From an uncultured Erysipelotrichaceae bacterium (GTDB lineage: Bacteria; Bacillota_I; Bacilli_A; RFN20; CAG-826), in NCBI GenBank assembly GCA_902800645.1, contig CADCFC010000001.1:122907-186906 (forward strand): 64,000 nt of DNA, read 5' to 3'. Position numbers and translations under genes: made by a program. Numbering within the stretch: the first letter of the stretch is position 1; each line of letters begins with the position of its first letter. The notes beneath the pieces are model-generated. The model made no database searches and was not told where the DNA came from. It was given only the letters and a program-made list of their open reading frames with translations. Of the stretch, positions 1,526-61,266 are shown in pieces.

Positions 1526-1623
1526 AAACAATAAATTTTAAGTTTAAGTGCATTTCAATTGCCTTAAATCTAGATTTAATATATACTTTTTTTCGCATGT
1601 AAACATATTAAAGGAGAATTCTC

Positions 1624-2898
1624 ATGAAAATTACATTCAAAGAATTAGAAGCGTGTCATACACAAGTTGATGTTGTTATTGACGAAGCAAAATGGAAAGC
1701 TGCTCAAGAAGCCACTTTAAAGAAACTCATTAAAGATGTCCAAGTTGATGGCTTTAGAAAAGGCAAAGTCCCAGAAGAAATCGCCAAAAAACACGTCGAC
1801 CAAGGAAGATTACTCGATGATGCGATTAATTCATTATTACCAGAAGCTTATAAAGAAGCTTTAGAAAAAGGAAAACTTCAACCATACGCTCAACCGAAGG
1901 TTGATGTCACAAAATTAAGCGACACAAACCTCGAAGTTAGATTTATTGTTGTCACTGGACCAAAAGTGGAACTCGGACAATATAAAGGTTTAGAACTTGG
2001 TAAAAAAGCCGCAAAAGTAACTGCTAAAGAAGTCGAAGACGCTATTGAAGAACTTAGAAAAGCAAACGCTACCTTAGTTTTAAAAGAAGGTGCTGCTGAA
2101 AAAGGTGATACAGTTGTTATGGACTTCGTCGGTTCAGTCAACGGTGAAAAGTTTGAAGGCGGAAGCGCTCAAAATTATGAATTAGAACTTGGTAGTGGTT
2201 CATTCATTCCAGGATTTGAAGATCAATTAATTGGCGTTAAAGCTGAAGAACATCGTGATGTCAAAGTCAAATTCCCAGAACAATACACTCCAGAACTTGC
2301 AAATAAAGATGCAGTCTTTGCTTGCGATGTTCACGAAGTGAAAACCAAGAAATTACCAGAACTCGCTGATGAATTTGTTAAAGATTTAGCAATTAAAGGC
2401 GTAGAAACAGTTGAAGCTCTTAAAGAAAATAAAAAGGCTGAACTTCTTAATAAAAAAGAAGCCGAAGCCAAAAAAGAATATTTAACAAAGTTATACGCTG
2501 AAATCGCTAAGAGCAGCAAGATCGAAATCCCACAAGAAATGATTGATGAACAAGCTGAATCCATGAAAAAAGACATGGAAAACAGAATGAAACAATCCGG
2601 ATTAACTCTTGAACAATATTTACAATTCACTGGCGACACCGAAGAAAACTTTGTTAACAAGTTAAAAGTCGATGCAAAGAAAGATATTACCAATTACTTC
2701 ATCTTAGAAAAAGTTGGTGAAATCGAAAAACTTGAATTAAGCGATGCGGATGTTGAAAATGAATATGAAAAACTCGCAAAAGAATATCAAATGAAAGTTG
2801 AAGACGTGAAGAAAGCTCTTTCTGCTCAACTCGATCAATTCAAGCACAACCTTCGCATGACAAGAGTCGAAGAAAAATTAATTGAATTAAATAAATAA
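1624..2898 (+). CDS. tig: Trigger factor (ribosome-associated chaperone/PPIase)
   Basis: 424 aa. The N-terminal ribosome-binding region (FRKGKVP) and the central FKBP-like domain are recognisable. SD GGAGA lies upstream. Confidence 0.9.
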   Translation: MKITFKELEACHTQVDVVIDEAKWKAAQEATLKKLIKDVQVDGFRKGKVPEEIAKKHVDQGRLLDDAINSLLPEAYKEALEKGKLQPYAQPKVDVTKLSDTNLEVRFIVVTGPKVELGQYKGLELGKKAAKVTAKEVEDAIEELRKANATLVLKEGAAEKGDTVVMDFVGSVNGEKFEGGSAQNYELELGSGSFIPGFEDQLIGVKAEEHRDVKVKFPEQYTPELANKDAVFACDVHEVKTKKLPELADEFVKDLAIKGVETVEALKENKKAELLNKKEAEAKKEYLTKLYAEIAKSSKIEIPQEMIDEQAESMKKDMENRMKQSGLTLEQYLQFTGDTEENFVNKLKVDAKKDITNYFILEKVGEIEKLELSDADVENEYEKLAKEYQMKVEDVKKALSAQLDQFKHNLRMTRVEEKLIELNK

Positions 2899-2927
2899 TT
2901 ATTTAAAGTCTACAAGGAGGTAAATGT

Positions 2928-5258: not shown

Positions 5259-5830
5259 TGATTAATTTTAATAACACTAAATTTATTAAAAGCGCTCCGA
5301 GTTTGAGTGATGCACCTCAGGGTCAATTCCCTGAGGTTTTACTCGTCGGAAAATCTAATGTTGGAAAATCCTCATTAATCAATGCTTTATGCAATAAAAA
5401 GGCTTTAGCCTTTACAAGTAGTAAACCAGGTCATACACGTCTACTTAATTATTATAATGTCGATGACAAACTATATTTAGTCGATGCTCCTGGATATGGC
5501 TACGCTAAAGGCGGGTTTGATCTCGACAAACTCTTCGGAGAGATGATGGAAGATTATTTCTCTAAGGTTACTCGTCTTAAAATAGTGTTGGTGCTTCTTG
5601 ATTCTCGAAGAGAACTATCAGAAGACGATTTAGAAATAATTGATTACTTAAAAGCTCATAATTTCAATCATGCTTTAGTGTTTACTAAGGTTGATAAAAT
5701 TAATCAAAGCGAAAAACATAAGTTATTAGTTGAACTTAAGAAGCATAATGTTAGTGAAAGTGAATGCCTATTTACTTCAACTTTAAAACCAAGAACTTTT
5801 GATGATTTAAGAGATCTTTTAATGAAATAG
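5258..5830 (+). CDS. engB: Ribosome biogenesis GTPase YihA/EngB (YsxC)
   Basis: G1 motif GKSNVGKSSLINAL. GTG start overlaps the lon stop (TAGTG). The tig-lon-ysxC order matches Bacillus. Confidence 0.85.
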   Translation: MINFNNTKFIKSAPSLSDAPQGQFPEVLLVGKSNVGKSSLINALCNKKALAFTSSKPGHTRLLNYYNVDDKLYLVDAPGYGYAKGGFDLDKLFGEMMEDYFSKVTRLKIVLVLLDSRRELSEDDLEIIDYLKAHNFNHALVFTKVDKINQSEKHKLLVELKKHNVSESECLFTSTLKPRTFDDLRDLLMK

Positions 5831-5839
5831 GAGAATGAT

Positions 5840-6436
5840 ATGGCTTTAATCAAATGTCCTGAATGCGGAAAAGAGATTAGCAGTGTAGCAGAAAGTTGCC
5901 CTCACTGTGGTTATCCAATCCAAAGAAAGATAAAAGAAGAAACAAAAGCAGAAGCTACAAATACTGAACCAGTTAATCCTGAGTGGATTAATATTTGGAA
6001 AAATAAAAAAAGAAACACAATTATTGGTTGGTTTATTGCTACTGCTGTTTTGCTGGTCTCTTTTATCGTTTTTATTATTTTATTAAATAATGATGTCGAA
6101 ACATACCTATGGGGCTATGTTTATCATAAAACAGGGTGGGAGATGGCTACTTATTTATCTGGTATTCTCGCCTTTTTTTCTTTATTAATGTCCATTCTAC
6201 TAATATTTATTATTAAAGTCAGAGTAAGACAATATAACGGATATAACGTTTTAGTCTATGCTGGATTTAAAAACTTTTTAGTTATTGAAAATCAAGTGCA
6301 TGATTCTGGAATAATGAATAGATATTTATACGGCCAATTGCCAAATAAAAAGCAAGTTTGGACGTCTATATCTATTTGGGATAATTCCATTAAACTCGGT
6401 ATTGGTGCTGAGGGAGATGAAAAGCAAATTTTGTAA
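5840..6436 (+). CDS. Zinc-ribbon membrane protein (N-terminal CPxCG zinc ribbon plus about 4 TM helices), function unknown
   Basis: CPECG...CPHCG motif at the N-terminus, hydrophobic helices downstream, and an SD GGAGAA. Confidence 0.55.
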
Positions 6437-6454
6437 CATCTAAAAAGCTTATTG

Positions 6455-6682
6455 CTAAAAATCATCTATATTTATATAATAAATTCGTTCGTTGAAATAG
6501 AGGAGTAGTGTAGAGACTACTATTAGAGAGTTAGGGATGGTGGAAGCCTAACAGCAAGTCTACATGAAGGTCGCTATGGAGAACATAAATTAATAAGTGC
6601 TAATGGAGAAATTCTATTAGAACTAAGGTGGTACCACGTTAAATGCGTCCTTAGAAATAAGGGCGTTTTATTTTTAGGAGGT
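6455..6682 (+). promoter_or_regulatory. T-box riboswitch leader of valS
   Basis: Conserved T-box sequence AACTAAGGTGGTACCACG at 6621-6638. It is followed by a terminator hairpin GCGTCCTTA-gaaa-TAAGGGCG plus a T-run (6645-6675), immediately upstream of the valS SD. AGAGA-type stem I elements appear earlier in the leader. Confidence 0.75.
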
Positions 6683-6686
6683 CAAT

Positions 6687-9281
6687 ATGTTAGAAAAAAG
6701 ATATTCCCCACATGATGTTGAAAAAGGAAAATATGAAAAATGGAAGGAAAGCGGTTACTTTACTGCTGGAGATAAATCTAAGAACCCTTTTTCTATGGTT
6801 ATTCCTCCACCAAACGTTACCGGTAAATTACATTTAGGTCACGCTTGGAATACGACAATTCAAGATATCATTGCAAGATATAAAAAGATGCAAGGATATG
6901 ATGTTTTATGGCTTCCTGGAATGGATCACGCTGGTATTGCTACACAAGCTAAAGTTATGCAAAAACTCGTGAGCATGGGAATTGATGTCACTAAGATTAC
7001 CCGTGAAGAATTCCTGAAATACGCATGGGAATGGAAGAGTGAATATGCAAATAACATTCATGAGCAATGGTCCAAAATGGGATTAATGCTTGATTACACT
7101 CGTGAAAGATTCACTTTAGATGAAGGACTTAATCTCGCAGTGAGAAAAGTTTTCGTTGATTTATATAATAAAGGACTCATTTATCAAGGCGAAAGAATCA
7201 TTTCTTGGGATCCAGTTCAGCAAACTGCTTTAAGTAATATTGAAGTCATTCACCAAGATGATGAAGGTTATATGTATTACTTCAAATATCACATTGTCGG
7301 TAGCGATGATTATTTAGAAGTTGCAACGACTAGACCTGAAACAATGTTTGGAGATGTCTGCGTTGTTATTAACCCAAAAGATGAAAAATATAAAAAATAT
7401 CATAATAAAGATATTAAGGTTATTAATCCTGCTAATGGAGAAGCCATCCCTCTCATCGAAGATGAATACGTTGAAATTGGCTTTGGAACTGGAGCGATGA
7501 AATGTACTCCTGCTCACGATCCAAACGACTTTGTAATCGGTAAAAAATATGGTTTAGAAATGCCAATCATCTTTAACAAGGATGCCACAATGAATGAAAA
7601 ATGCGGTAAATACAAAGGTATGGACCGTTTTGCTTGTCGTGAAGCTCTATTAAAAGACATTGATAGTCGTGGTGATTTCATCAAGCAAGAAAAGATTATC
7701 CACGCGGTTGGTCACTCTCAAAGAAACAACTGCGTTGTTGAACCAATGCTATCCAAACAATGGTTTGTAAAAATGAAACCATTAGCATTAGAAGCAATAA
7801 AGAATCAAGAAGGGAATGACAAAGTCAATTTCGTTCCTCAAAGATTCGAGAACACCTTCTTACAGTGGATGAATAATATTGAAGACTGGTGCATCTCTCG
7901 TCAACTTTGGTGGGGTCATAGAATTCCTGCCTATTACCGTAAGGTAACAGGAGAAGTTGTGGTATCAATGGACCCTCCAAAAGATATCGAAAATTACGAA
8001 CAAGATAGCGATGTACTTGATACTTGGTTCTCTAGTGGGCTTTGGCCGTTTTCAACTCTAGGTTGGCCAGAAAAAACTGAAGATCTTAACCGCTATTTCC
8101 CAACTAGCTGTTTAGTTACAGCGTATGACATTATTTTCTTCTGGGTTAGTAGAATGATATTCCAATCTTTAAATGTCACCAAGAAATCTCCATTCAATGA
8201 TTGTGTGATTCACGGTTTAGTTCGTGATGAATTAGGCAGAAAAATGTCTAAATCTCTTGGCAATGGTGTCGATCCACTCGACGTTATTGATAAATACGGT
8301 GTTGACGCTTTGAGATATTTCTTAACGACTAATAGCACTCCAGGCCAAGACATGCGTTACTCTGATGAAAAAGTTCAAAGTAGTGCAAATTATTTAAATA
8401 AAATATGGAATAGTGCGCGTTATGTATTAAGCGTAATACCTGAAGGATTTTCCGAAGTTAAATTAGATACTTCTAATTTGTCTGAACTTGATAGGTGGTT
8501 ACTTAATCGCTTAATGCTCACAATAAATAATGTTCAAATGAACATGGATAAATATGATTTTAATGCGGCGAGTAGTCATTTATACAACTTTGTTTATGAT
8601 GATTTTTGCTCTCAATATCTTGAAATGAGCAAGGTCAAATTAAATGGAAATGATAAAAAAGCAAGCGAAGTTACTAGAACTGTTTTATTAAAAACACTTA
8701 AGACTATCATTCTTCTTATTTATCCTTACACTCCATTTATTGCGGAAGAGTTATATCAAAACTTGCCATCTCACCTCGATAGTGTAATGCTTGAGAGCTA
8801 TCCAAAAGTTGAAAAAGAATATCTTAATAATAGCGCTGATAAGGAAATTGAACTTCTTTTCTCAATGATTAAAGAAGTCAGAAATTATAAAATTTCTAAT
8901 CAATTATCTCCAAGCGCACCTCTTGGTATTTCAATTTCTTTAAAAACCCCTGTTAGCAGTGATTTCTTAACTTATTTGAATAGATTTACCTTCTCTAATG
9001 TAAGCGTCGTAGAAGATATCTCTACTCTTCAAGGAGAGCTATATTCATTCGCTTTTGGTTCTTTAATTATTACTAGTGGAGTTAATAAAGAAGAAATAAG
9101 AGCTAAATTAGAAAAGGACATCGCTTTTGAAAGAAGTGAAATTGAACGTGGAGAAAGGATGCTCAACAATCCTAACTTTATCGCTAAAGCTCCAAAAGAA
9201 AAGATCGATAATGAAAAAGCAAAATTAGCTCTTCATCAAGAGAACTTAGCAGAGTTAATGAGCAAACTTAAAAAAATTTAA
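6687..9281 (+). CDS. valS: Valyl-tRNA synthetase
   Basis: 864 aa with HIGH motif (PNVTGKLHLGHAW), KMSKS motif (KMSKSLGN) and a C-terminal coiled coil. Confidence 0.95.
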   Translation: MLEKRYSPHDVEKGKYEKWKESGYFTAGDKSKNPFSMVIPPPNVTGKLHLGHAWNTTIQDIIARYKKMQGYDVLWLPGMDHAGIATQAKVMQKLVSMGIDVTKITREEFLKYAWEWKSEYANNIHEQWSKMGLMLDYTRERFTLDEGLNLAVRKVFVDLYNKGLIYQGERIISWDPVQQTALSNIEVIHQDDEGYMYYFKYHIVGSDDYLEVATTRPETMFGDVCVVINPKDEKYKKYHNKDIKVINPANGEAIPLIEDEYVEIGFGTGAMKCTPAHDPNDFVIGKKYGLEMPIIFNKDATMNEKCGKYKGMDRFACREALLKDIDSRGDFIKQEKIIHAVGHSQRNNCVVEPMLSKQWFVKMKPLALEAIKNQEGNDKVNFVPQRFENTFLQWMNNIEDWCISRQLWWGHRIPAYYRKVTGEVVVSMDPPKDIENYEQDSDVLDTWFSSGLWPFSTLGWPEKTEDLNRYFPTSCLVTAYDIIFFWVSRMIFQSLNVTKKSPFNDCVIHGLVRDELGRKMSKSLGNGVDPLDVIDKYGVDALRYFLTTNSTPGQDMRYSDEKVQSSANYLNKIWNSARYVLSVIPEGFSEVKLDTSNLSELDRWLLNRLMLTINNVQMNMDKYDFNAASSHLYNFVYDDFCSQYLEMSKVKLNGNDKKASEVTRTVLLKTLKTIILLIYPYTPFIAEELYQNLPSHLDSVMLESYPKVEKEYLNNSADKEIELLFSMIKEVRNYKISNQLSPSAPLGISISLKTPVSSDFLTYLNRFTFSNVSVVEDISTLQGELYSFAFGSLIITSGVNKEEIRAKLEKDIAFERSEIERGERMLNNPNFIAKAPKEKIDNEKAKLALHQENLAELMSKLKKI

Positions 9282-9298
9282 TAATTTTTAAATATAAC

Positions 9299-9322
9299 GA
9301 CCATCTATTGATGGTCTTTTTT
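9299..9322 (+). terminator. Rho-independent terminator of valS
   Basis: GACCATC-tatt-GATGGTC followed by TTTTTT. Confidence 0.75.
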
Positions 9323-9384
9323 ATTAATGGAAAAAACTAAAAATATTTTGTGAACTTTTTTCGTTTTCGACCCTATTTAATTAG

Positions 9385-9494
9385 TGAGGGGGCAAAATAA
9401 GGACTTCTCTCCTTTCTTAGCTCATAACTTATTTCCCAAAATCCCAAAACAATCACAGAAAAGTCACAAATTCTATCCTCGCCCCCTCAGGAGG
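9385..9494 (+). promoter_or_regulatory. Candidate structured 5' leader: 9-bp GC-rich long-range stem enclosing a hairpin and an A/C-rich tract, ending at the SD
   Basis: TGAGGGGGC (9385-9393) is the exact reverse complement of GCCCCCTCA (9481-9489). An internal hairpin AAGGA-cttctc-TCCTT is present. The CUCCUUUCU tract is complementary to the SD AGGAGG at 9489-9494. Confidence 0.3.
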
Positions 9495-9499
9495 TTTCT

Positions 9500-9682
9500 A
9501 TGAATTACGAATTATTAAATGAAGAAGAACTTCGTAGTGAAGTTAGTGGTGCCGCATTTTCTTTAACAGCGGTAATGGCGGTATTAGCAAGCGCAGTTAT
9601 TGCGGTTATAATTTACAAATTATTCCTATCTAAAAAGGGAACAGCAAGTATCCCTGGCGGATGGAAGTTCACTTGGAATTAA
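9500..9682 (+). CDS. Small (60 aa) single-pass membrane protein, translationally coupled to radC
   Basis: Strong SD AGGAGG placed 6 nt upstream of the ATG, a hydrophobic core AAFSLTAVMAVLASAVIAVIIYKLFL, and a TAATG stop/start overlap with radC. Confidence 0.45.
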   Translation: MNYELLNEEELRSEVSGAAFSLTAVMAVLASAVIAVIIYKLFLSKKGTASIPGGWKFTWN

Positions 9683-10356
9683 TGGGAATAAAAGATTTAC
9701 CAAAATTAGATCAACCACGAGGAAAAGCCAAGCATTATGGAATCTCTTCTTTAAGTGATATTGAGTTATTAACTCTATTAATTGGCAGTGGATATAAAGA
9801 AGTAACCGCTTTAGAAATAGCGACAAGTTTATTAACTAAATTTAAAGGCCTAAAAAAGATTAGTGATGCCTCTATTGAGGAACTCGAAGAAATTAAAGGA
9901 ATTAAAGAAGCAAAAGCGATTTCTTTGCTCGCAATTTTTGAGTTTCACAAACGTCTTTCATTTAAAGAAAATGAAGAGAATGAATTAGAAGTAAATGAAG
10001 ATTATTTATATAATAAATACAAAGACATTTTACTTTCATCACATCAAGAAAATTTGGTGATTATAATCCTTAATAAATTTCATAAAATTATCCATGAAAA
10101 AACATTATATGTAGGAACAGAAAATAACGTCGCTTTTTCCTATAAAGACATTTGGAGAGAATTGCTCACTCATAAGGGCAAATGTTATTATTTAATTCAT
10201 AATCATCCAGGTGGAAAATGTACTCCATCAAAAGAAGACATTATTTTTACTAGTGAATTATTTTTGGAGAGTAAGCGTATCAAAATTCCTCTAATTGATC
10301 ACCTAATTATTGGAGATAACGGATATTATTCTTTTCAAAAATTGAAAAAAGAGTAA
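9682..10356 (+). CDS. radC: RadC-family JAB/MPN domain protein (UPF0758)
   Basis: N-terminus MGIKDLPKLDQPRGKAKHYGISSLSDIELLTLLIGSG and the JAMM motif HNHPGG. The ORF track starts at 9661, but the family-typical N-terminus and the TAATG coupling favour 9682. Confidence 0.8.
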   Translation: MGIKDLPKLDQPRGKAKHYGISSLSDIELLTLLIGSGYKEVTALEIATSLLTKFKGLKKISDASIEELEEIKGIKEAKAISLLAIFEFHKRLSFKENEENELEVNEDYLYNKYKDILLSSHQENLVIIILNKFHKIIHEKTLYVGTENNVAFSYKDIWRELLTHKGKCYYLIHNHPGGKCTPSKEDIIFTSELFLESKRIKIPLIDHLIIGDNGYYSFQKLKKE

Positions 10357-10394: not shown

Positions 10395-10500
10395 AACTAA
10401 CGTTGTCGCCTCACTAGCTACAACCGCATAGAAAAGGTTTATAAAACCTTATGGTTACCTTCATAGCGAGTCCTTAGTGAAATTTCTAAAGAAGGAGGGA
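10395..10500 (+). promoter_or_regulatory. Candidate ribosomal-protein L21 leader (5' UTR of rplU-prp-rpmA)
   Basis: A 148-nt untranslated region with the hairpin AAGGTTTATAAAACCTT lies before rplU. A conserved L21 leader is known at this position in Bacillus-like Firmicutes. Assigned by position and structure only. Confidence 0.3.
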
Positions 10501-11134: not shown

Positions 11135-11431
11135 ATGAATCACAATATGATGTTTAAACTTAATTTACAACTCTTCGCTTCTAAAAAAGGTGTTGGTTCT
11201 ACTAAAAACGGACGTGATTCCGCTGGTCGTAGGTTAGGTGCTAAAGTAGCAGATGGACAATGGTGCCATGCTGGTAGCATCATCTATAGACAAAGAGGAA
11301 CTCGTATCTATCCAGGTGAAAATACCAAAAAAGGTAAAGATGACACAATCTTTGCAACCGTTAACGGTGTCGTTAAATACGAACGCTTAGGCAAAGATCG
11401 CAAAAGTGTTAGAGTTATCGCTGATAAATAA
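11135..11431 (+). CDS. rpmA: 50S ribosomal protein L27 with N-terminal propeptide
   Basis: ...[25 protein letters not shown] is the Prp cleavage context. The true start is probably one of the two Met codons at 11147 or 11150. Confidence 0.9.
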
Positions 11432-11455
11432 TTATTATTGGCAATAGTTACATTA

Positions 11456-11482
11456 GACCACATTAATTTGTGGTCTTTTTAT
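11456..11482 (+). terminator. Rho-independent terminator after rpmA
   Basis: GACCAC-attaattt-GTGGTC followed by TTTTT. Confidence 0.7.
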
Positions 11483-11507
11483 TATATTTTTATTATAATA
11501 ATCTTAT

Positions 11508-12785
11508 ATGTTTATCGATCGAGCAATTATTGAAGTTAGAAGTGGAAAAGGTGGCGATGGCGCTATCGCTTTTAGACGTGAAAAGTACGTTCCTAAAGGC
11601 GGACCAGCTGGAGGTAATGGAGGCCGTGGTGCTTCTGTTATTTTAAGAGCTAATAGCAAAATCAATACTTTATTCAATTTCCGTCACTCCAAATGCTTCA
11701 TCGGACAAGATGGAGAAAAAGGTGGGATTAAAAATCAATACGGGAGACACTCAGATGACATATATGTTGATGTTCCTGTCGGCACTGTTGTCTATGAAGA
11801 GAAAGACCACAAATTCTTGGGAGATTTATCGAAGGATGGTTTAACTCTTAAAGTCGCAAAAGGTGGAAGAGGTGGTAGAGGAAACACTTGCTTTAAAAGC
11901 TCTACCAATCGCGTTCCTAAAATTGCTGAAAATGGTGAACCGGGTGAACAAAAAAGATTAATTTTAGAATTAAAATTACTTGCCGATGTTGGCTTAGTTG
12001 GATTTCCAAGCGTTGGAAAATCCACTTTGTTATCAGTTGTGAGTTCTGCTCGTCCTGAAATCGCTGATTATCCATTTACTACAATCATCCCTAATCTAGG
12101 CGTTGTTACTTCAAAAGATGGAAGAAGTTTTGTAATGGCAGATCTTCCAGGAATTATTGAAGGTGCACATGTTGGTAAAGGACTAGGCTTACAATTTTTA
12201 AGACACATCGAAAGATGCCGTATCATCGTTCATGTAATTGATATGGGTGAAAGTGGTAGAGATCCATATGAGGATTTCAAAATTATCAATAAAGAACTTG
12301 AAGAATACGGTTTTGGATTAGTTAAACGACCTGTCATTTATGTTGCTAGCAAAATGGATGAAGAAGGTGCAAAAGAACGTTTAAAAGCTTTTGAAAAGAA
12401 GAGCAAAGTTAAATGTATTCCAATTTCATCTTTAACTGATGAAGGCATCGAAGAATTAGTGTATAAATGCGTCGATTTACTCGATGTAACTCCTATCTTC
12501 CCACTCGTTGATAGTGAAGAAGAAGTTCTCGAAAATAAAGTATATAAGCTCGATGAAGAAGAGAAAGAATTTGAAATCAAACATCCAAATCTTCATACTT
12601 GGGAGATTACCGGAGATAAAATTATTAAATTTTATCGTATGACAAATATTTCTACCGATGAAGGAATGATGAAGTTATTAACCAAATTAAGAAAACTTAA
12701 GGTTGATGACATTTTGGATGAAATGGGTGCTCAAGATGGCGATACAGTCATCTTGGATGATTTCTCATTTGATTATTACCGTTAA
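11508..12785 (+). CDS. obg: GTPase Obg/CgtA
   Basis: Gly-rich Obg fold (GGDGAIAFRREKYVPKGGPAGGNGGRG), a G domain, and a C-terminal OCT/TGS-like domain. Confidence 0.9.
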   Translation: MFIDRAIIEVRSGKGGDGAIAFRREKYVPKGGPAGGNGGRGASVILRANSKINTLFNFRHSKCFIGQDGEKGGIKNQYGRHSDDIYVDVPVGTVVYEEKDHKFLGDLSKDGLTLKVAKGGRGGRGNTCFKSSTNRVPKIAENGEPGEQKRLILELKLLADVGLVGFPSVGKSTLLSVVSSARPEIADYPFTTIIPNLGVVTSKDGRSFVMADLPGIIEGAHVGKGLGLQFLRHIERCRIIVHVIDMGESGRDPYEDFKIINKELEEYGFGLVKRPVIYVASKMDEEGAKERLKAFEKKSKVKCIPISSLTDEGIEELVYKCVDLLDVTPIFPLVDSEEEVLENKVYKLDEEEKEFEIKHPNLHTWEITGDKIIKFYRMTNISTDEGMMKLLTKLRKLKVDDILDEMGAQDGDTVILDDFSFDYYR

Positions 12786-12787
12786 TT

Positions 12788-13525
12788 ATGAAACTTAAAG
12801 ATTATTTAAAAGTTATCGAAAAATTTGTAAAAGACTATTTAGAGACTACGCACCAAAAGCAATATGTCTTAGGTCTTTCTGGTGGAGTTGATTCATCTTT
12901 AGTTGCAGCAATCACTAAGGCCGCCGTAGGAAAAGATAAATTGACTTGTATTATGATGCCAATCGATTCTCATCCAGATGATTTAAATGATGCAATAGAT
13001 TTAGCAAATCAATTGGATTTAAATTACTTTGTAATTGATGGTTCAAAATCTTTTCATGAAACATTGAAGAGATTTGAAGAACTTGGAATTGAACTAGATA
13101 GAGGCACGCAAGCAAATCTTAAAGTACGTATTCGAATGACAATTCTTTACGCATATGCCCAAAAAGTAGGTGGTCTTGTAATTGGTACGGACAATAAAGA
13201 TGAAAGATATACTGGTTATTTCACCAAATATGGTGATGGTGGTGTTGATTTGCTCCCAATTGTTCATTTAGTTAAAAGCGAAGTAGTTGAAGCTTGTAAA
13301 ATGTATGGCATAAGCGATCGCCTAGCGGAAAGAACTCCATCCGCTGGTTTATTTGAAGGACAGACTGACGAAAAAGAAATGGGAGTCACATATAAAGATT
13401 TAGACAAATATCTATTAGGTGGAGACATCGACGAATCTAGCAAAGCTAGAATCGAACATCTACACCGAATAAGTGAACATAAAAGAGTAGATATTCCTAC
13501 TCCTGAGGAGTTTATAAGAGACTAA
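12788..13525 (+). CDS. nadE: NH3-dependent NAD+ synthetase
   Basis: PP-loop LGLSGGVDSSLVAAI; 245 aa. Confidence 0.85.
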   Translation: MKLKDYLKVIEKFVKDYLETTHQKQYVLGLSGGVDSSLVAAITKAAVGKDKLTCIMMPIDSHPDDLNDAIDLANQLDLNYFVIDGSKSFHETLKRFEELGIELDRGTQANLKVRIRMTILYAYAQKVGGLVIGTDNKDERYTGYFTKYGDGGVDLLPIVHLVKSEVVEACKMYGISDRLAERTPSAGLFEGQTDEKEMGVTYKDLDKYLLGGDIDESSKARIEHLHRISEHKRVDIPTPEEFIRD

Positions 13526-15312: not shown

Positions 15313-18057
15313 ATGAGAAGACTATGGGCACACATCATTATCGCTGCTAGTGCATTGATTGCGGTTTTCGCATCATTTCCTAGCATGATAAAAGGTATCA
15401 GAGCAGATGGCGATCATGAAGTTCGTCGTCAGTTCACATTCCAATTATCCGAAAGAGAAAAAGACGAAAAAGGAAATGCAGGCAAAAAGCTTAACGGAAA
15501 TTCCGCTAAAGAGATTGCAAGTATCATGGAGCAAAGATTAATTTCTTATGGTATTGAATCCTACGACATTAAAACTAGTGGAAACGCCGATAAGAGTGAC
15601 GTTATTACCGTCGCCTTTACTGCCGATAATGAAGATCAATATCAACAAATCACTAACTATTTAAGTTTTAGTGGTTCCTTTGCTTTAATGAATAACCAAG
15701 GTACTGTTATTCCTGCAAAAGATTTTAGAAATGGCCCAGCATATCAAAAAGAAGCAACTTTAAATACCTTCCCAACCATAATTCTTCCAATCGTTACTAC
15801 TTCCGAAGACTGGGACACATTATTAGAAAAAGCCAGATTAAATCCAGTCGCTAACGAAGATACAAGTGAAGCTGCTGAAAGCACAGTCGCTAGAGTGTGG
15901 CTTATTTTCAACTACACTGATGGAGATGACTACACAATTCTTACTGAGCAAAATAAATTAGCAGAAAAAACTTTATTAACATATGACTTCAGCCCAGAAG
16001 ATAAAGAATACAAATCCTTCTATGGTGACGAAAATAAAAATTCTTTATGGACCACAGTTGGCTCTGAAGACACTAATAGCAATGGATATACAGATCCTGA
16101 TGAAGTCAGAAGCGCTTATAACCGCGCTAAATATTTATTAAATTTATTCAACGCTTCAGCACTCGACTACGAAGTAGAATGTGTTGCTGGATTAAGCGAA
16201 TCTACAAGGGTATGGCTTGATCCAACCATTGAAAAGATTAATTACGAAGGAAAGATTGTTTGGAATGCATCCTTAACAGCTTGCGTTGCTGCAGTCATTA
16301 TTATTTCCTTACTCCTCGTCGTCTTCTATAGACTTGGAGCGCTCAGTGCAATTACAACCTCTGTAGTTACTATCTTCCTCGCTTTCTTATTCATGATTCG
16401 TTCAGGAATGGTTTATAACATGCTTGCGCTCGTCGCCTTTGTACTCGTGGCGATCGTATCCTTAGTCAGCTCAATAATTTATTTGAATAAATTAAAAGAA
16501 GATGCTTATCGTGGACACACCTTAAAGAAAGCAAATACTGAAGCTAGTAAAAAGAGTTTACTCCCAATCATTGATATCAACGTTGTCGGTGTTATTGTTG
16601 GAGTTATGATCTATTTATTAGGTGGAGCATCCTTACATACATTCGGTGCAATTGTCGGCATTGGTTCTTTAATCTCCTTAGTCGTCAACACCTTTGGCTT
16701 AAAAGGTCTTATGTGGTTATCTACAAACGCGACAAGCTTGATCGGAAAATATGAATATTTTGGAATTAATTCTGAAAATGTTCCAAACCACATGGCAGAA
16801 GAAAAACAAAGATACTTTGGTGCCTACGCCGATAGAGACTTCACAAAGAAGAAAAAAGTTTCTGCTATTGGCTTTTCAAGCGCATTATTAGTGTCTATTG
16901 TAGGTGTTATTCTTGCATCTAGTTTAATGGGAGGCAACTTGCTTAAAGCAAAGAGTTCATCCACTGTTAGTAATCAGATGTATGTCTCTAACAAAATCAA
17001 AGTTAATGGTGATACTAAAACCGAACTCGATGAAACTTCTTTAACAAAGAAAGTTTTAACTTATTTAGAAATCGAGACAACTAAAGAAGATAACACCAAA
17101 GAATATGTTCCATTTAAGAATTATGTTGTCGGTTACAATAAAAACGATGACATGGTAAATGAATACAAGACATATGAAGTAGTTGATTACATCGTTGAAG
17201 AAGGTGTTGGAACTGTTACTTATAGAACCACATATTATGTTGTTAATTTATCTAAGGCCTTCAATTTAGAAACTACAATGGCGCGCATCAATAAAGAAGG
17301 CGGCACTCCTAGTAGTGTTGAAACTTTAAAAGACACACTTGAAAACTTCTTCTCAACATCTGAATTATTCAAATCTTCCGAAGGAAGCATAATTGATTAT
17401 AAACAAACAAGTACATACGTTAATGAGCCAACTGTTGAATGGAAGAAAGTATTATTAGCCTCTTCAATTGCAGTTGCAATCTTAACTGTTTATTTCTTAA
17501 TCAGATACCGTTTAACTCGTGGATTAGCTTCCTTAGTTACTCCAATGGTTACTATCTTAGTCACACTTGCTCTAACCACTTTATTAAGTGTTATTGGTCT
17601 ATCAATTCCAGGAAGCGCGTTCTCTGCGGTCTTTATTGGAGTTATCTTAGCTTACGCCTTTGAGATTCTCTTCATGAATAGAGAAAGAGAACTTATTATC
17701 GAAGATAAGAATAATGAAATGACTAGTGAACATCGCGCTGAAATTGCTAATAGAGCAATGGGCATGGCTCTTACTCCAATTTTAGCTAGTGCCGTCATTG
17801 GAATTTATTTATTAATCAATTTCTTTGGATTTGGTACAGCAATTGCTTCTTATACTTATTTAATTGCAATCCTTGGTGGATTACTCGCTTTAGCGATTGT
17901 CTATTTTGCTTACGTGCCATTATGTGACTTACTTATTTCCTTATTCTCCAAGGTCAAAATTAATATTAAGCCTAGAGAAAGAAAGAATAAGAAAAAGGTC
18001 GCAGTCAAGAAATCCGCTGAACCTGAAGAAGCAATCTTCATCGGTATCAACGACTAA
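15313..18057 (+). CDS. secDF: Fused protein-export membrane protein SecDF
   Basis: 914 aa. The layout is TM1, a large extracytoplasmic domain, 5 TM helices, a second extracytoplasmic domain, then 6 TM helices (SecD/SecF-like RND architecture). Its position between ruvB and recJ matches B. subtilis. The sequence is divergent, so the call rests on topology and synteny. Confidence 0.7.
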   Translation: MRRLWAHIIIAASALIAVFASFPSMIKGIRADGDHEVRRQFTFQLSEREKDEKGNAGKKLNGNSAKEIASIMEQRLISYGIESYDIKTSGNADKSDVITVAFTADNEDQYQQITNYLSFSGSFALMNNQGTVIPAKDFRNGPAYQKEATLNTFPTIILPIVTTSEDWDTLLEKARLNPVANEDTSEAAESTVARVWLIFNYTDGDDYTILTEQNKLAEKTLLTYDFSPEDKEYKSFYGDENKNSLWTTVGSEDTNSNGYTDPDEVRSAYNRAKYLLNLFNASALDYEVECVAGLSESTRVWLDPTIEKINYEGKIVWNASLTACVAAVIIISLLLVVFYRLGALSAITTSVVTIFLAFLFMIRSGMVYNMLALVAFVLVAIVSLVSSIIYLNKLKEDAYRGHTLKKANTEASKKSLLPIIDINVVGVIVGVMIYLLGGASLHTFGAIVGIGSLISLVVNTFGLKGLMWLSTNATSLIGKYEYFGINSENVPNHMAEEKQRYFGAYADRDFTKKKKVSAIGFSSALLVSIVGVILASSLMGGNLLKAKSSSTVSNQMYVSNKIKVNGDTKTELDETSLTKKVLTYLEIETTKEDNTKEYVPFKNYVVGYNKNDDMVNEYKTYEVVDYIVEEGVGTVTYRTTYYVVNLSKAFNLETTMARINKEGGTPSSVETLKDTLENFFSTSELFKSSEGSIIDYKQTSTYVNEPTVEWKKVLLASSIAVAILTVYFLIRYRLTRGLASLVTPMVTILVTLALTTLLSVIGLSIPGSAFSAVFIGVILAYAFEILFMNRERELIIEDKNNEMTSEHRAEIANRAMGMALTPILASAVIGIYLLINFFGFGTAIASYTYLIAILGGLLALAIVYFAYVPLCDLLISLFSKVKINIKPRERKNKKKVAVKKSAEPEEAIFIGIND

Positions 18058-34153: not shown

Positions 34154-34177
34154 CGACTCATTTATGAGTCGTTTTTA
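34154..34177. terminator. Bidirectional intrinsic terminator at the convergence of deoB (+) and the ABC permease gene (-)
   Basis: GACTCAT-tt-ATGAGTC flanked by A-run/T-run (taataataaGCGACTCATTTATGAGTCGTTTTTATT). Confidence 0.7.
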
Positions 34178-34937
34178 TTAGCTTTTTTAATAAATCTAAA
34201 ATTAAAGTGACAAAAAGCATCACAATAATAGCAATAAGAGAATAAGCAAAAGTTGGAACCATGCCTTTGTCTGAATTGATGTAGGCACTTCTAATCGCAA
34301 TTCCAATTCCATCCGCAGTGGAACCCGAAATAACTTCCGCCATTATTTCAATTTTAAATGAAAGAGCAAAACTAGAAACTAAGCCAAGAATAATAGTGGG
34401 CAACGCTAACGGAAACTTGATAAAAGCATTACTTCTAAATCTATTCGCTCCATCAATTCTAGAAGACATAATCACGAATTCATCTATAGATGAATAACCA
34501 GCAATAGTGGCTTCATAAACAATTGGAAAAACAATGACTCCAACAATATAAATTGGAGCATTTTTTAATCCTGTTAACATCAAAAACAAAAAGACAAGAG
34601 CAGCGGTGGGGACAGCTTTTATTGCAACCATTGTTGGATTAAAAACATATTTTAGCGATGAATAATTTCCAACAACAATTCCTAAAACAATTGCTAAAAC
34701 TGAAGCGGTCACAAATCCGATCAGCATTCTCTTAAGAGACTCCCAAATACATAGATATGTATAAGAGTCTTTTAAATAGATGAACATTTCATTAAAAGTT
34801 TCTATTGGTTCGGGAAAAATAATTCGATTTGAACCCGCTAAATAATAAATAGCAATCCAAATTAAAAAGAAAAGCAAAACACCAACGGCGGTTAAAAGAT
34901 ATTTGTTAGTTATCACTTTTCTTAATGCTTTTTTCAT
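34158..34937 (-). CDS. ABC transporter permease (binding-protein-dependent inner-membrane component, NitT/TauT-like)
   Basis: 259 aa with 6 TM helices and an EAA-like cytoplasmic loop (SSRIDGANRFRSNAFIKFPLALP). Confidence 0.75.
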   Translation of the reverse strand: MKKALRKVITNKYLLTAVGVLLFFLIWIAIYYLAGSNRIIFPEPIETFNEMFIYLKDSYTYLCIWESLKRMLIGFVTASVLAIVLGIVVGNYSSLKYVFNPTMVAIKAVPTAALVFLFLMLTGLKNAPIYIVGVIVFPIVYEATIAGYSSIDEFVIMSSRIDGANRFRSNAFIKFPLALPTIILGLVSSFALSFKIEIMAEVISGSTADGIGIAIRSAYINSDKGMVPTFAYSLIAIIVMLFVTLILDLLKKLIKTTHK

Positions 34938-34939
34938 TA

Positions 34940-35896
34940 CTAGACTCTTAAGATTCCTTTATTTTCAATTACGAGTTTAGTGTTATTGGCGTTCTCAACA
35001 GCATATGTATTGAGCTCTAAATCACCATAAACATATTCAAAAATTTTGCCTGGTAAATCATTCTTTTGGAAATAGAGAACTCGATCACCTTTATTAAGCT
35101 CGTTATCGGCATCTGTTCCCGTGGAAACAATATACATATTACCAAAGGTAATAGTAGCGGCAATTTTATAGTTTGCTTGATTATTAATAATTTGCATTAG
35201 TCCTCCGTGAGTTGGAGCGACAATAACGTCATATGCTCCTTTACTAAACGCTGGGATAATAACATCTGATGGACTACCAGTAGTCTCAAAATTTGCATTA
35301 GTTGCGTAATTATAAAACGCGATTGCAGGTGCGCCTGTTGGAACAAGAATCTTTAAATCTGAAAAACTCTCAGTTTCGGAAACACTCATATTAAAAATAT
35401 GATCATCAGTTAATTCGCCAATTTTTGGATTCAATAGCTTAGCAAATGTTGAAGTTTCTTCTTTAACTAAAGACGTTTCTTCATAGCCTAAAGAAAACCC
35501 ATTACTAGAGTTAGTTACCTTAAAAGCCATCGCTCCAGGAACTCCATATTTTGCTTGTTGTTGCTGAGGTGAAGTTAATGCTTCAATTCCAGTTTTAATC
35601 AACCCTGGATTATTTAATCCATTTTGAATATCGCTCTTAAGACTGTTTAAAAAATTTGATAGTTTATTGCTTGAAGTAGCTTTCTTAACAAAGATTGATG
35701 CTTGCATTATGCGCTTGCCTGAACTCTTTAAAACGAAGTCTGATTGTACATTTTTAAAAATGGTGGAATTTGTGGCAGACAAAACAGGTTGAGCAGTGAA
35801 TACATAATCAAACTGCATAACTGTTGGTTCAGATCCTTTTGAACAGCCAATTAATGAAATTAGCATAGCTGGTAATAATAGAATAGTTTTTTTCAT
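34940..35896 (-). CDS. Lipoprotein, probable ABC transporter substrate-binding protein
   Basis: Signal peptide plus lipobox (LISLIGC). The C-terminal half resembles a type-II periplasmic binding protein. Separated from the permease gene by 2 nt. The N-terminal 150 aa are low-complexity. Confidence 0.5.
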   Translation of the reverse strand: MKKTILLLPAMLISLIGCSKGSEPTVMQFDYVFTAQPVLSATNSTIFKNVQSDFVLKSSGKRIMQASIFVKKATSSNKLSNFLNSLKSDIQNGLNNPGLIKTGIEALTSPQQQQAKYGVPGAMAFKVTNSSNGFSLGYEETSLVKEETSTFAKLLNPKIGELTDDHIFNMSVSETESFSDLKILVPTGAPAIAFYNYATNANFETTGSPSDVIIPAFSKGAYDVIVAPTHGGLMQIINNQANYKIAATITFGNMYIVSTGTDADNELNKGDRVLYFQKNDLPGKIFEYVYGDLELNTYAVENANNTKLVIENKGILRV

Positions 35897-58262: not shown

Positions 58263-58718
58263 TTAGATACCTCTTTCTTTAAGAATTTGTTCTTGTAAAG
58301 AAAACATCACTTCTTCGTCTTCTTTATTCATGTGGTCATATCCGAGTAGATGAAGTAGACCATGAACAAAGAGGAAACAAAGTTCTCGCTTTAATGAATG
58401 TCCATATTCTATAGCTTGCTCTTTTGCTTTTTCTAAAGAGATATAAATATCTCCTAGAGCCACCATTCCTTCTTTATAGAGGACTTTGTCATATAGATGG
58501 CCATCATCTAAAAAGGCGAAACTAATGACGTCAGTTGGACGATCAATATTGCGATATTTTTTATTGATGCGATGGATGTAACGATTATCAACAATAGAAA
58601 CAGAAACAATTGGATCGCACTTAATCTTGAGTGTTGAAAGTGCGATTTCCATTAAGGAATTGTATTCTTCTTCGTAAGATTCTGCTTCTTTAAATTTTGA
58701 GTTAAAATCGAGTTCCAT
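58263..58718 (-). CDS. ybeY: Endoribonuclease YbeY
   Basis: HGLLHLLGYDH metal-binding motif. Confidence 0.85.
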   Translation of the reverse strand: MELDFNSKFKEAESYEEEYNSLMEIALSTLKIKCDPIVSVSIVDNRYIHRINKKYRNIDRPTDVISFAFLDDGHLYDKVLYKEGMVALGDIYISLEKAKEQAIEYGHSLKRELCFLFVHGLLHLLGYDHMNKEDEEVMFSLQEQILKERGI

Positions 58719-58762: not shown

Positions 58763-59959
58763 TTATAGTTTAAAATCGATTTGATTTATCAATCTAGCTT
58801 TTGTCTTTTCAAATTCCTCGCTTTGTAATGAATACTCAAGCATCTTTGTGAAAGTTTGTTTAAGAAAGATTGAGATGCATAGGTATACGAGAACATAAGT
58901 GATATTGATAACTCTAGTTATCATCATCATAAGAACAATCGTGAGCAAGATAACCGCAACCTCTAAATAGGTATAGGTATTCTTGTTAAATCCAATTTGA
59001 TATGCGACATCATGAGCGTCTCTACTTTTTGTCTTGAACTGAAAGTCAGTCTCTACTTCCACTACTTCATTTTCTTTTTCGATGATTTCTATTGACTTAT
59101 TTTTAAAGTATGGCTTATAGAAAAATACATCAATAACCGCTAAAGCAAGTGGGAGAAAAATGTAAATCATGTTTAGCGAATCATTGATAACTGTAATTAT
59201 AGAGACGAATGTAGCGATTAAAGTTGCCCCGATAAAATTGGGCGTTGTCGATAAAGCGTGGTATCGATAGTTTTCAATCGTTTTATAAAGTTCTAAATAA
59301 TTCAGATTTTCTCTTCTAAAGTCATACTCGTAAATATTGTCATCCATTCTTTTCATCGCGTTAACTAATTGCCATCTAAATATGATCTCAAAGATAACGA
59401 ATAAGGCAAAGAATGCAATTGGAAGGAAATAGATTGTCTTGTCGCTTACAAAGTAAGCGCCTAAAAGAAGCGAGATTCCACTAATAACTTGCAAGATTGG
59501 GAGAATAATCTTGTCTCGCGTATCAACGAAATCAGGGTAAATGATTTCACATTTCTTCTTTTTAGGCTCTTCTTCTGCTATCAGTGCTCTACCATTCCAT
59601 TCATCTAAAAATATTTCTGTTGATATTCGATGTTTACCAACCGAAGGATCATAAACTGTCACGTATTTTGGATTTGCTTTAAGAATGAGAACCGCGTGTT
59701 TTATTCCCTTTTTTCTTTCAAGGGTGATGATGAATGGAAATTTCTTACACGAATAAAGTTCCTTTGGGTCAGTAACTTTGACCCCGAGAAGTTTTAAATC
59801 ATAAATGCCGGCAATCTTTATCAACTCTAAAAAACTATAAGGACGATCTTCTGGGCACTGAAGATAAAGATAGTTTTTATCGCGATGATAATTTGCGAGC
59901 ATCATTTTTAAGCAAGCAAAGGCGCAATCATGCTTGCCTAACTGTGATATAAAATACAT
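58763..59959 (-). CDS. Peptidase C39-domain protein fused to an ABC-type transmembrane domain but lacking a nucleotide-binding domain (truncated PCAT-like)
   Basis: N-terminal 130 aa align with the bacteriocin-processing C39 fold: Q-x4-DC-x2-AC-L (ISQLGKHDCAFACLKMML), catalytic His context HAVLIL, DPSVG, and W.G. Then 5-6 TM helices follow. The protein stops about 25 aa after the last helix. Strong SD AGGAGG. Confidence 0.6.
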   Translation of the reverse strand: MYFISQLGKHDCAFACLKMMLANYHRDKNYLYLQCPEDRPYSFLELIKIAGIYDLKLLGVKVTDPKELYSCKKFPFIITLERKKGIKHAVLILKANPKYVTVYDPSVGKHRISTEIFLDEWNGRALIAEEEPKKKKCEIIYPDFVDTRDKIILPILQVISGISLLLGAYFVSDKTIYFLPIAFFALFVIFEIIFRWQLVNAMKRMDDNIYEYDFRRENLNYLELYKTIENYRYHALSTTPNFIGATLIATFVSIITVINDSLNMIYIFLPLALAVIDVFFYKPYFKNKSIEIIEKENEVVEVETDFQFKTKSRDAHDVAYQIGFNKNTYTYLEVAVILLTIVLMMMITRVINITYVLVYLCISIFLKQTFTKMLEYSLQSEEFEKTKARLINQIDFKL

Positions 59960-60132
59960 AATTCCTCCTATTCCGGGACAATTTTTGCCCCTTCATTACT
60001 TAAATAGGGTGGAAAGATAAAAAACTTTATTTTTAATTTTTGTTAGTTCTTTGAACTAAAAAATTTTTATAGAAACAAAAAAAGCAGTGAAATATTCATC
60101 GCTAGTAAAGAAAAGTCCTTCACGAGGAAGAA

Positions 60133-61266
60133 CTATTTCTTAAATTTCTTTTTAAACTTTTCAAATAAGGAATCGCTATCTTTGCTCACATCTTTATAAG
60201 CTTGAAGCGCTTCTTTTTGTTTTTTTGTTAATGATGTTGGTCCTTTAATATCTAAGTGGATATATTGGTCACCAGGTTTACCAGTTCTCAAATCTTTAAT
60301 ACCTTGGCCTTTAAGTCTTAAGACTTGACCAGGTTGAGTGCCTTCAGGAACAGTGACAATCATTTCTCCGTAGACTGTAGGGACTTCAATCTTGGTTCCT
60401 AAAATCGCATCGACGAAATCAAGAGGTACTTCTAGATGGATATCATTTCTTTCGCGCTTGAAGTATGGATGTTCTTTAACATTAATCTCAACATAGAGAT
60501 CTCCGTGTTCTCCACCATTTTTTCCAGCGCCACCCATTCCTTGAAGTCTAATTTGTTGACCATTATTAATACCAACCGGTATATGAATCTTGGTTGTCTT
60601 TTTAATACGTTTAGTACCGCTGCCACCACAGACAGAGCATTTCTTTGAAATGGTCTTTCCACTGCCACCACAATCAGGACACACCGTTTCAGTATTCACA
60701 GTGCCGAATAAGCTTCTTGTTTGTCGAGTAACAGATCCGCGTCCATGACATGTACTACAAGTTTTAATATCGCTTGGACTTTCCGCTCCGCTTCCGTGGC
60801 AATGAGGACAATCATCATCAAAATCAAATTGAATCTCTTCGTCTTTTCCATTGACTACGTCCATGAAATCAACGCGCAATCGCATTAATACATCATCGCC
60901 TCTAATCGGGCCAGTCTGTCTTCTTGAAGAACTTCTTCCTCCACCAAAGAATTGTGAGAAGATGTCTCCTAAATTAATATCTTCACCAGAGAATCCGCTA
61001 AATCCACCAAATGGGTTTCCACCAGCAGGGCCTCCTCCGGTTTGCTCAAATGCCGCATGACCAAACTGGTCATATGCACTACGTTTTTGGTCATCATAAA
61101 GGATGTCATATGCTTCTTGAACTTCCTTAAACTTGGTTTCATCGCCTGTCTCTTTATTATCAGGATGATACTTTTTTGCAAGTTTACGGTAGCTCGATTT
61201 GATTTCGTCTTTGGAAGCAGTTTTACTCACTCCAAGGATTTCATAATAATCTCTTTTTGTTGCCAT
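60133..61266 (-). CDS. dnaJ: Chaperone DnaJ
   Basis: J domain with HPD, G/F region, four CxxCxGxG repeats and a C-terminal domain. Confidence 0.95.
   Translation of the reverse strand: MATKRDYYEILGVSKTASKDEIKSSYRKLAKKYHPDNKETGDETKFKEVQEAYDILYDDQKRSAYDQFGHAAFEQTGGGPAGGNPFGGFSGFSGEDINLGDIFSQFFGGGRSSSRRQTGPIRGDDVLMRLRVDFMDVVNGKDEEIQFDFDDDCPHCHGSGAESPSDIKTCSTCHGRGSVTRQTRSLFGTVNTETVCPDCGGSGKTISKKCSVCGGSGTKRIKKTTKIHIPVGINNGQQIRLQGMGGAGKNGGEHGDLYVEINVKEHPYFKRERNDIHLEVPLDFVDAILGTKIEVPTVYGEMIVTVPEGTQPGQVLRLKGQGIKDLRTGKPGDQYIHLDIKGPTSLTKKQKEALQAYKDVSKDSDSLFEKFKKKFKK

Follow-up and report, generated by a model that had tools for sequence, protein, structure and literature searches.

What can a peptidase of the kind that serves ATP-driven exporters do in a protein that has no ATPase? 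Peptidase-containing ATP-binding cassette (ABC) transporters (PCATs) are the textbook example of transporters that couple proteolysis to export driven by ATP, and the question is raised by a gene at 58763..59959 on the minus strand of a 64,000-nt stretch of DNA from an uncultured Erysipelotrichaceae bacterium (contig CADCFC010000001.1, hereafter the window). Coordinates are positions in the window unless a related locus is named, and L001–L040 are related loci from a public collection. A sequence-only reading had seen here a C39 peptidase followed by a PCAT-like membrane domain without the nucleotide-binding domain (NBD), and had offered as roles an ATP-independent leader-peptide protease, the partner of an NBD encoded elsewhere, or a pseudogenised exporter that is still translated. 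We find that the protein is an intact PCAT homologue that keeps the C39 peptidase and a six-helix exporter-like domain without an ATPase, so that the architecture seen in that reading stands and the pseudogene does not.

The N-terminal domain is a C39 peptidase

The open reading frame (ORF) list shows a complete gene that begins with ATG, spans 58763..59959 exactly on the minus strand and encodes 398 aa; it has homologues in the public collection, where protein P0001 is 100% identical to it. The C39 (double-glycine) cysteine peptidase domain, predicted to be cytoplasmic, comprises residues 1–132 (59564..59959, minus strand). It matches PF03412 (Peptidase_C39) with 65.3 bits where the curated cut-off is 22 (E = 6.4e-18); the match runs over residues 2–132 and profile positions 3–132 of 133, and distant members of the family match the same profile. 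Among solved structures, a sequence search returned the peptidase domain of ComA (E = 1e-4) along with LahT, a double-glycine protease, and PCAT1. Residues Q6, C12, H88 and D104 align with Q11, C17, H96 and D112 of ComA, i.e. the oxyanion Gln and the Cys/His/Asp triad, which argues that the motifs Q6-x4-D11-C12, K87-H88-AVLILKANPKYVTVYD104-PSVG and W121-N-G123, quoted in the sequence-only reading, are real and the catalytic ones.

Conservation was followed in an alignment of 215 full-length members that are 22–100% identical to the window protein (median 29%). Gln6 (codon 59942-59944) is conserved in 98% of them, the catalytic Cys12 (59924..59926) in 99%, the catalytic His88 (59696..59698) in 100%, and the catalytic Asp104 of the 'DP' motif (59648..59650) in 99%, all four codons lying on the minus strand. 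The Lys-rich linker that follows in the family alignment (residues 133–146; 59522..59563, minus strand) includes Cys137, which is invariant in the close subfamily only and reaches 51% family-wide. Predicted structures match those of C39 domains (5xe8, 3k8u, 6mpz and 7n87) in Foldseek with target TM-scores of 0.66–0.80, the model of the window protein reaches 0.7–0.8 on the ComA and LahT domains, and the modelled fold is the papain-like α/β fold of the ComA and LahT peptidase domains. Thus, by every testable feature the window protein belongs to peptidase family C39, as the full signature noticed in its first 130 aa had indicated.

A large family of uniform length

A first search found 78 clusters at 40–58% identity, full-length and nearly all of 395–434 aa. 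An exhaustive HMMER profile search over 1.84 billion representatives, with the family clustered at 50% identity, then gave 1454 cluster representatives at E ≤ 1e-3, 475 at E ≤ 1e-10 and 215 at E ≤ 1e-30. Fragments aside, the best 150 of the 1454 matches are all 390–415 aa long and are matched end to end, and none of these 150 has a length of ~700 aa. The sequence-only reading had named a full-length gene in relatives as the finding that would speak for decay; none lies at this position, and the ~400-aa form is the conserved state.

The mean column identity across the 215 members is 0.50 in the C39 domain and 0.40 in the membrane domain, where the best-conserved residues are polar: D206 (97%), N259 (97%), E296 (95%), N263 (89%) and E191 (88%). 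E191 lies inside TM2, N259 and N263 at the outer TM3–TM4 turn, and D206 and E296 near the cytoplasmic tips. This pattern shows that selection maintains both an active-type protease and the membrane domain. The gene is an intact, single-copy one that encodes a real protein and not a broken transporter, and it belongs to a large, vertically inherited single-copy core-gene family of a deep clade, which the sequence-only reading had overlooked.

The membrane domain resembles that of PCAT1 in predicted structure

Residues 147–392 (58784..59521, minus strand) make up a membrane domain with six helices, long cytoplasmic helical extensions and a predicted type-IV ABC-exporter transmembrane domain (TMD) fold, as judged from AlphaFold2, Foldseek, hydropathy and conservation. 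Hydropathy places six hydrophobic cores at about 151–169, 176–194, 240–258, 262–280, 335–353 and 353–371, and AlphaFold2 predicts long helices at 147–169, 178–210, 221–259, 261–300, 305–348 and 353–392. Two models were made from different alignments. The first, of the window protein with a 47-sequence family alignment (pLDDT 88.3, pTM 0.78), has an α/β N-domain followed by six long helices; the second is of P0215, a member 24% identical to the window protein (pLDDT 81.7). In a Foldseek search of the PDB with the first model, PCAT1 ranks first over both peptidase and membrane domain (E = 4.6e-14), and the second model gives the same ranking (PCAT1 E = 1.2e-13, TM 0.65). PCAT1 is followed by HlyB and isolated C39 domains, and then by the TMDs of IrtAB, CydDC, MsbA, TM287/288, McjD, PglK and TAP over ~300 columns. 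With both models the query TM-score to PCAT1 is 0.62–0.65 for the inward-facing, peptidase-docked state and 0.45–0.49 for the ATP-bound, outward-facing state.

At the level of sequence the likeness disappears. PF00664 (ABC_membrane) finds no match at E ≤ 1 in the window protein, in its isolated C-terminal part or in three distant members, and hhalign of the family profile against the full 748-aa PCAT of L032 aligns residues 3–125, the C39 part, and nothing else. The L032 protein served as a control, since it carries PF03412, PF00664 (a 266-aa match) and PF00005. The PCAT-like TMD is thus a structural inference that rests on the predicted fold, and the domain is not recognisable by sequence as an ABC transporter TMD. 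Of the five or six PCAT-like helices proposed from the letters, the count is now six, and the resemblance holds for predicted structure but not for sequence; the HMM search and structure prediction proposed there have confirmed the C39 fold along with that count.

Two further features bear on how such a domain could work. In both AlphaFold2 models the cytoplasmic connections TM2–TM3 and TM4–TM5 (ICL1 and ICL2) are tight, non-helical turns of 4–10 residues and lack the short coupling helices through which NBDs are engaged, and in the family alignments the tail after TM6 is poorly conserved. The peptidase precedes TM1 without a signal sequence, the linker before TM1 is Lys-rich, and hydropathy and charge place most Lys/Arg in the long loops after TM2, TM4 and TM6, so that the peptidase and both long helical extensions are predicted to be cytoplasmic, like those of PCATs.

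No ATPase or cargo gene is linked to the gene

The window protein has no Pfam match to an NBD (PF00005). It ends 6 residues past the last predicted helix and ~27 past the last hydrophobic core, close to the 25 aa counted earlier, and ybeY begins just 44 nt past its stop codon, which leaves no room for a hidden NBD remnant. No ABC signature motif occurs in window ORFs of at least 100 aa, and the Walker A matches that might have marked an ABC ATPase belong to GTPases, Lon, RuvB and similar proteins. Nor is an NBD gene linked to the homologue in any of the 41 loci that span the family.

Regex scans for an ORF with a double-glycine leader, of which the sequence-only reading had seen none in the flanks, were likewise negative in the window and in 40 related loci totalling 669 kb; all that they raised were ORFs on the antisense strand, the CPFCGG motif of a zinc ribbon and a start codon inside ispH. 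Relatives carry a short conserved ORF between lepA and hemW, which was considered as cargo and rejected, as it encodes a single-pass membrane protein without a GG motif. The insert at this place in the clade consists of a gene for a ~490-aa soluble protein and one for a 73–91-aa single-pass membrane protein with an acidic tail (L004 318-2021, L001 242-1978, L035 2244-4016), both without a Pfam match or double-glycine leader. Three ORFs of ~880 aa upstream of the homologue in L023 were also set aside, being lipoproteins with lipoboxes and no GG cargo.

An ATP-independent leader peptidase is the favoured reading

Our preferred view is that the protein is a leader peptidase of the double-glycine type which is bound to the membrane and needs no ATP, and that its exporter-like domain serves to dock the substrate; we give this reading a probability of roughly 45%. 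By analogy with PCAT1, the membrane domain would form a homodimer in an inward-open shape, with the long cytoplasmic helices forming a chamber against which the peptidase docks, and the PCAT1 state that both models come closest to is indeed the inward-facing one with docked peptidase. The substrate, whose gene would lie elsewhere in the genome, would be bound at the chamber by its leader and be cut by Cys12/His88/Asp104, presumably at the Gly-Gly/Ala/Ser site typical of the C39 family. The membrane domain would then not be an ATP-driven pump, but would capture the substrate, activate the peptidase and site the reaction at the membrane. According to work cited in PMC6363468, the C39 proteases of PCAT1 and NukT become more active when they are associated with the TMD, which suggests a role for a membrane domain that needs no ATP. 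We infer the dimerisation, the double-glycine specificity, the ATP independence and the fate of the cleaved product.

This reading is preferred to a partner NBD because the coupling helices are absent in the models and no NBD is linked to the gene in any lineage. Several points weigh against it. That coupling helices are lacking is known only from predicted models of the monomer, and the scans described above have yielded no substrate. Unlinked or shared ABC ATPases may exist in the source genome, and are conceivable here since the window holds an importer permease without an adjacent ATPase gene. Finally, the conserved polar TMD residues N259/N263 and E191 are poorly explained by a mere anchor or scaffold, and their conservation hints at gating or ion coupling. 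The importer permease (PF00528; SaoP/TauC-like) is encoded at 34158-35896 (minus strand) together with a 318-aa lipoprotein-like gene that has no Pfam/NCBIfam match, and the unit is flanked on the other strand by deoB and a gene for a Crp-like regulator.

An ATPase polypeptide encoded elsewhere could complete the protein to a split ABC exporter, in which the window protein would be the peptidase–TMD subunit of an ATP-driven processing and export machine. The predicted TMD does retain the full-length type-IV cytoplasmic helical extensions, the acidic D206 and E296 near their tips (95–97% conserved) could be a docking site, and the importer permease just described likewise has no ATPase gene beside it. 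However, no NBD gene is linked in the 41 loci despite deep divergence and otherwise frozen synteny, the window ORFs hold no ABC signature, the predicted ICL1 and ICL2 are tight turns, and the tail after TM6 is not conserved. To our knowledge, type-IV exporters are TMD–NBD fusions. A split exporter is thus unlikely.

The membrane domain might instead alternate its access by the proton-motive force or a substrate gradient, so that the protein both cuts and exports without ATP. SbmA, which is proton-driven, NBD-less and structurally related to the TMDs of ABC transporters, is a precedent (PMC13316013). The acid E191 in TM2 (88%), N259 (97%) and N263 (89%) at the outer TM3–TM4 turn, and the constraint on the whole TMD would suit such a transporter. 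On the other hand, neither model has an SbmA-type structure in its 50 best Foldseek matches, one conserved membrane carboxylate makes a weak case for proton coupling, and the models favour the inward-facing state only. A secondary or facilitated exporter is therefore doubtful, and we hold equally tentatively its boldest form, a PCAT minus its motor in which proton-motive force or facilitated diffusion would carry the cleaved product across the membrane, and which would serve the whole clade as a core, possibly essential secretion or maturation route for a double-glycine-leader protein.

It is less probable still that the protein is a regulatory or signal-transducing protease, with the exporter-like domain as a sensor of the membrane or extracellular side and the C39 domain cutting a cytoplasmic or membrane-tethered housekeeping protein. 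Such a role would suit a core single-copy gene in the ybeY/era housekeeping operon that has no bacteriocin-type neighbours in any lineage and no leader-peptide gene nearby, in the window or in the 669 kb of related loci. However, the analysis turned up no candidate target, and operon position alone is weak functional evidence; in addition, all characterised C39 domains process double-glycine leaders, as far as we know. As to a pseudogenised or truncated PCAT that is still translated, for which the loss of the NBD is the single argument, the uniform 390–415-aa length in a family of 215 cluster representatives, the 98–100% conservation of the catalytic residues beside a conserved TMD, the same synteny from 58% to ~24% identity and a 44-nt gap too short for an NBD remnant refute it.

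Comparison with known C39 systems

The window protein shares with PCAT1 of Clostridium thermocellum, ComA, LahT, NukT and CvaB an N-terminal cytoplasmic C39 domain with the Gln/Cys/His/Asp set, and PCAT1 is the best predicted-fold match for its peptidase and six helices. It lacks the C-terminal NBD with Walker A/B and LSGGQ that defines PCAT/AMS transporters and so, strictly speaking, does not count as a PCAT. Its TMD has ~250 aa, where PF00664 matches 266 aa of the L032 PCAT, and shows no detectable PF00664 similarity. Unlike PCATs, the family has no predicted coupling helices and no neighbouring precursor, immunity or accessory genes, and it is a core gene of a housekeeping locus, whereas PCATs lie in accessory bacteriocin or quorum-sensing clusters.

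The best NCBIfam match is the Mbov_0121-family mycoplasma transporter (NF045998; E = 1.4e-8), which covers the peptidase and the first two helices and comes from a related Mollicutes lineage. Its 33.5 bits compare with a cut-off of 500, so the window protein is not a member; the profile has 673 positions, the ATPase included going by the family name. Excised or stand-alone C39 domains (LahT150, ComA PEP and FapD) have the same catalytic domain and presumably the same chemistry, but are soluble or small, whereas the peptidase here is permanently fused to a conserved six-helix membrane domain. The C39-like domain (CLD) of HlyB-type transporters has a related fold, and HlyB is among the fold matches. 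CLDs do not have the catalytic Cys (PMC6363468). As Cys12 is present and 99% conserved, the domain is not a CLD, and HlyB has an NBD where the window protein has none. With SbmA/BacA (SLiPT) the protein shares the concept of an ABC-TMD-related protein that works without an NBD (PMC13316013), as an analogy and not as membership, since SbmA and BacA are importers that lack a peptidase domain, and neither is found in the 50 best fold matches.

In the open-access literature we found no description of a natural, conserved PCAT homologue without an NBD; in the accessible papers the C39 peptidase is either built into a complete ABC transporter or soluble as a domain of its own.

Gene neighbourhood

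A Shine–Dalgarno sequence, AGGAGG, lies 4 nt before the ATG on the minus strand (59964..59969; CCTCCT on the plus strand) by direct reading, and is the one that the sequence-only reading had given. The place of the gene between dnaJ and ybeY amid housekeeping genes is likewise borne out by the ORF list. Downstream, ybeY (58263..58718, minus strand) follows after the 44-nt gap, and the order continues with cdd, era, recO, glyQS, dnaG, sigA, trmK and a NIF3 gene. The upstream neighbour is dnaJ (60133-61266), encoded on the minus strand as well; before it come dnaK, grpE and the last part of hrcA. The dnaJ–C39 spacer of 173 nt holds two small hairpins on the minus strand, at 60040-60056 and 60114-60134; the second, found by a pattern scan, is weak and terminator-like and lies across the dnaJ stop codon (60114..60134), a consensus match rather than functional evidence. 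No sigma-70-like promoter was found on the minus strand of this spacer. Given the hairpin at the dnaJ stop, the C39 gene may begin the ybeY-cdd-era-recO transcription unit. The window as a whole has a G+C content of 35% and consists nearly entirely of housekeeping genes. Its only Rfam matches are a T-box leader before valS (6483-6655, plus strand) and an L21 leader before rplU-ysxB(prp)-rpmA (10412-10484, plus strand), and its 64 kb hold no tRNA genes.

The synteny sample comprised close relatives (L001-L022, L024, L029 and L031), loci at 26–30% identity (L025-L028 and L030) and the most divergent ones (L033-L040). The homologue lies directly upstream of ybeY-cdd-era-recO in 40 of the 41 loci, and the order continues with glyQS-dnaG-sigA. 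Only L023 departs from this, with an alpha-amylase gene that separates the homologue from ybeY. In the window's own clade the upstream neighbour is dnaJ, whereas in distant clades rsmE, mtaB, rpmF, deoC and rpsU stand between dnaJ and the C39 gene; in Bacillus, phoH and pgpH precede ybeY, and the order in the distant clades is what we would presume from Bacillus. Because adjacency to dnaJ is limited to the window's clade and adjacency to ybeY is family-wide, the invariant partner is ybeY and not dnaJ, a point that the sequence-only reading had missed.

Some of these loci show peculiarities of their own. In L023, a Coprobacillus-labelled metagenome-assembled genome (MAG), the ~880-aa lipoproteins are three tandem paralogues directly upstream of the C39 homologue (1589-9849), with a lipobox Cys and, in the one tested, no Pfam match; the break between homologue and ybeY is at 11291-12925. 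In L037 (1488-1531) and L038 (1492-1535), of the most divergent subfamily, the called ybeY has 177 rather than ~151 aa and shares 44 nt with the 3′ end of the C39 gene; either the two genes truly overlap and are translationally coupled, or the start of ybeY was called wrongly. In L025 (7979-8925) a GFO/IDH/MocA oxidoreductase is divided over two adjacent ORFs, one with the N-terminal Rossmann part and one with the C-terminal part, possibly by a frameshift or as a pseudogene.

Host range

All carriers seen are MAGs of uncultured bacteria that come from rumen, gut or faeces, and their labels read Bacilli, Erysipelotrichaceae, Bacillales, Mollicutes or Coprobacillus. Word-indexed searches and a cluster look-up returned no named or cultured carrier, only 'hypothetical protein', 'predicted double-glycine peptidase' and MAG labels. 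The reference-genome scan used peptide patterns of the close subfamily, which undersample distant members, and so cannot show absence from cultured taxa.

Between ruvB and recJ, the place of secDF in Bacillus, the window encodes a 914-aa membrane protein (15313-18057, plus strand) with no Pfam match at E ≤ 0.001. It matches the mycoplasma-type SecDF profile NF046001 at E = 1.8e-48, far below the cut-off, and E. coli SecD (5mg3) at E = 3e-8, and appears to be a highly diverged SecDF. Next to Mycoplasmatales and Erysipelotrichales branch three uncultured orders, RFN20, RF39 and ML615J-28 (PMC10868615). The carriers are Mollicutes-related Bacilli, and a mycoplasma PCAT as the best NCBIfam match of the C39 protein, together with a SecDF that seems to be of mycoplasma type, fits these three orders.

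Implications

A family that keeps the peptidase and an exporter-like domain but no ATPase is a natural experiment on a PCAT membrane domain acting alone, whether in substrate docking, in activation of the protease or as a conduit. Both the architecture and the frozen core-gene status would surprise a specialist in ABC transporters, and they make the role of the PCAT membrane domain without ATP directly testable, within the practical limit that the hosts are uncultured. If ATP-free export were true, the family would be a second bridge, beside SbmA, between primary and secondary transporters. In summary, the frozen single-copy place upstream of ybeY-era in relatives of the mycoplasmas with reduced genomes argues for a housekeeping role rather than bacteriocin warfare, and this position suggests that these bacteria have a conserved substrate of maturation or secretion that has gone unrecognised.

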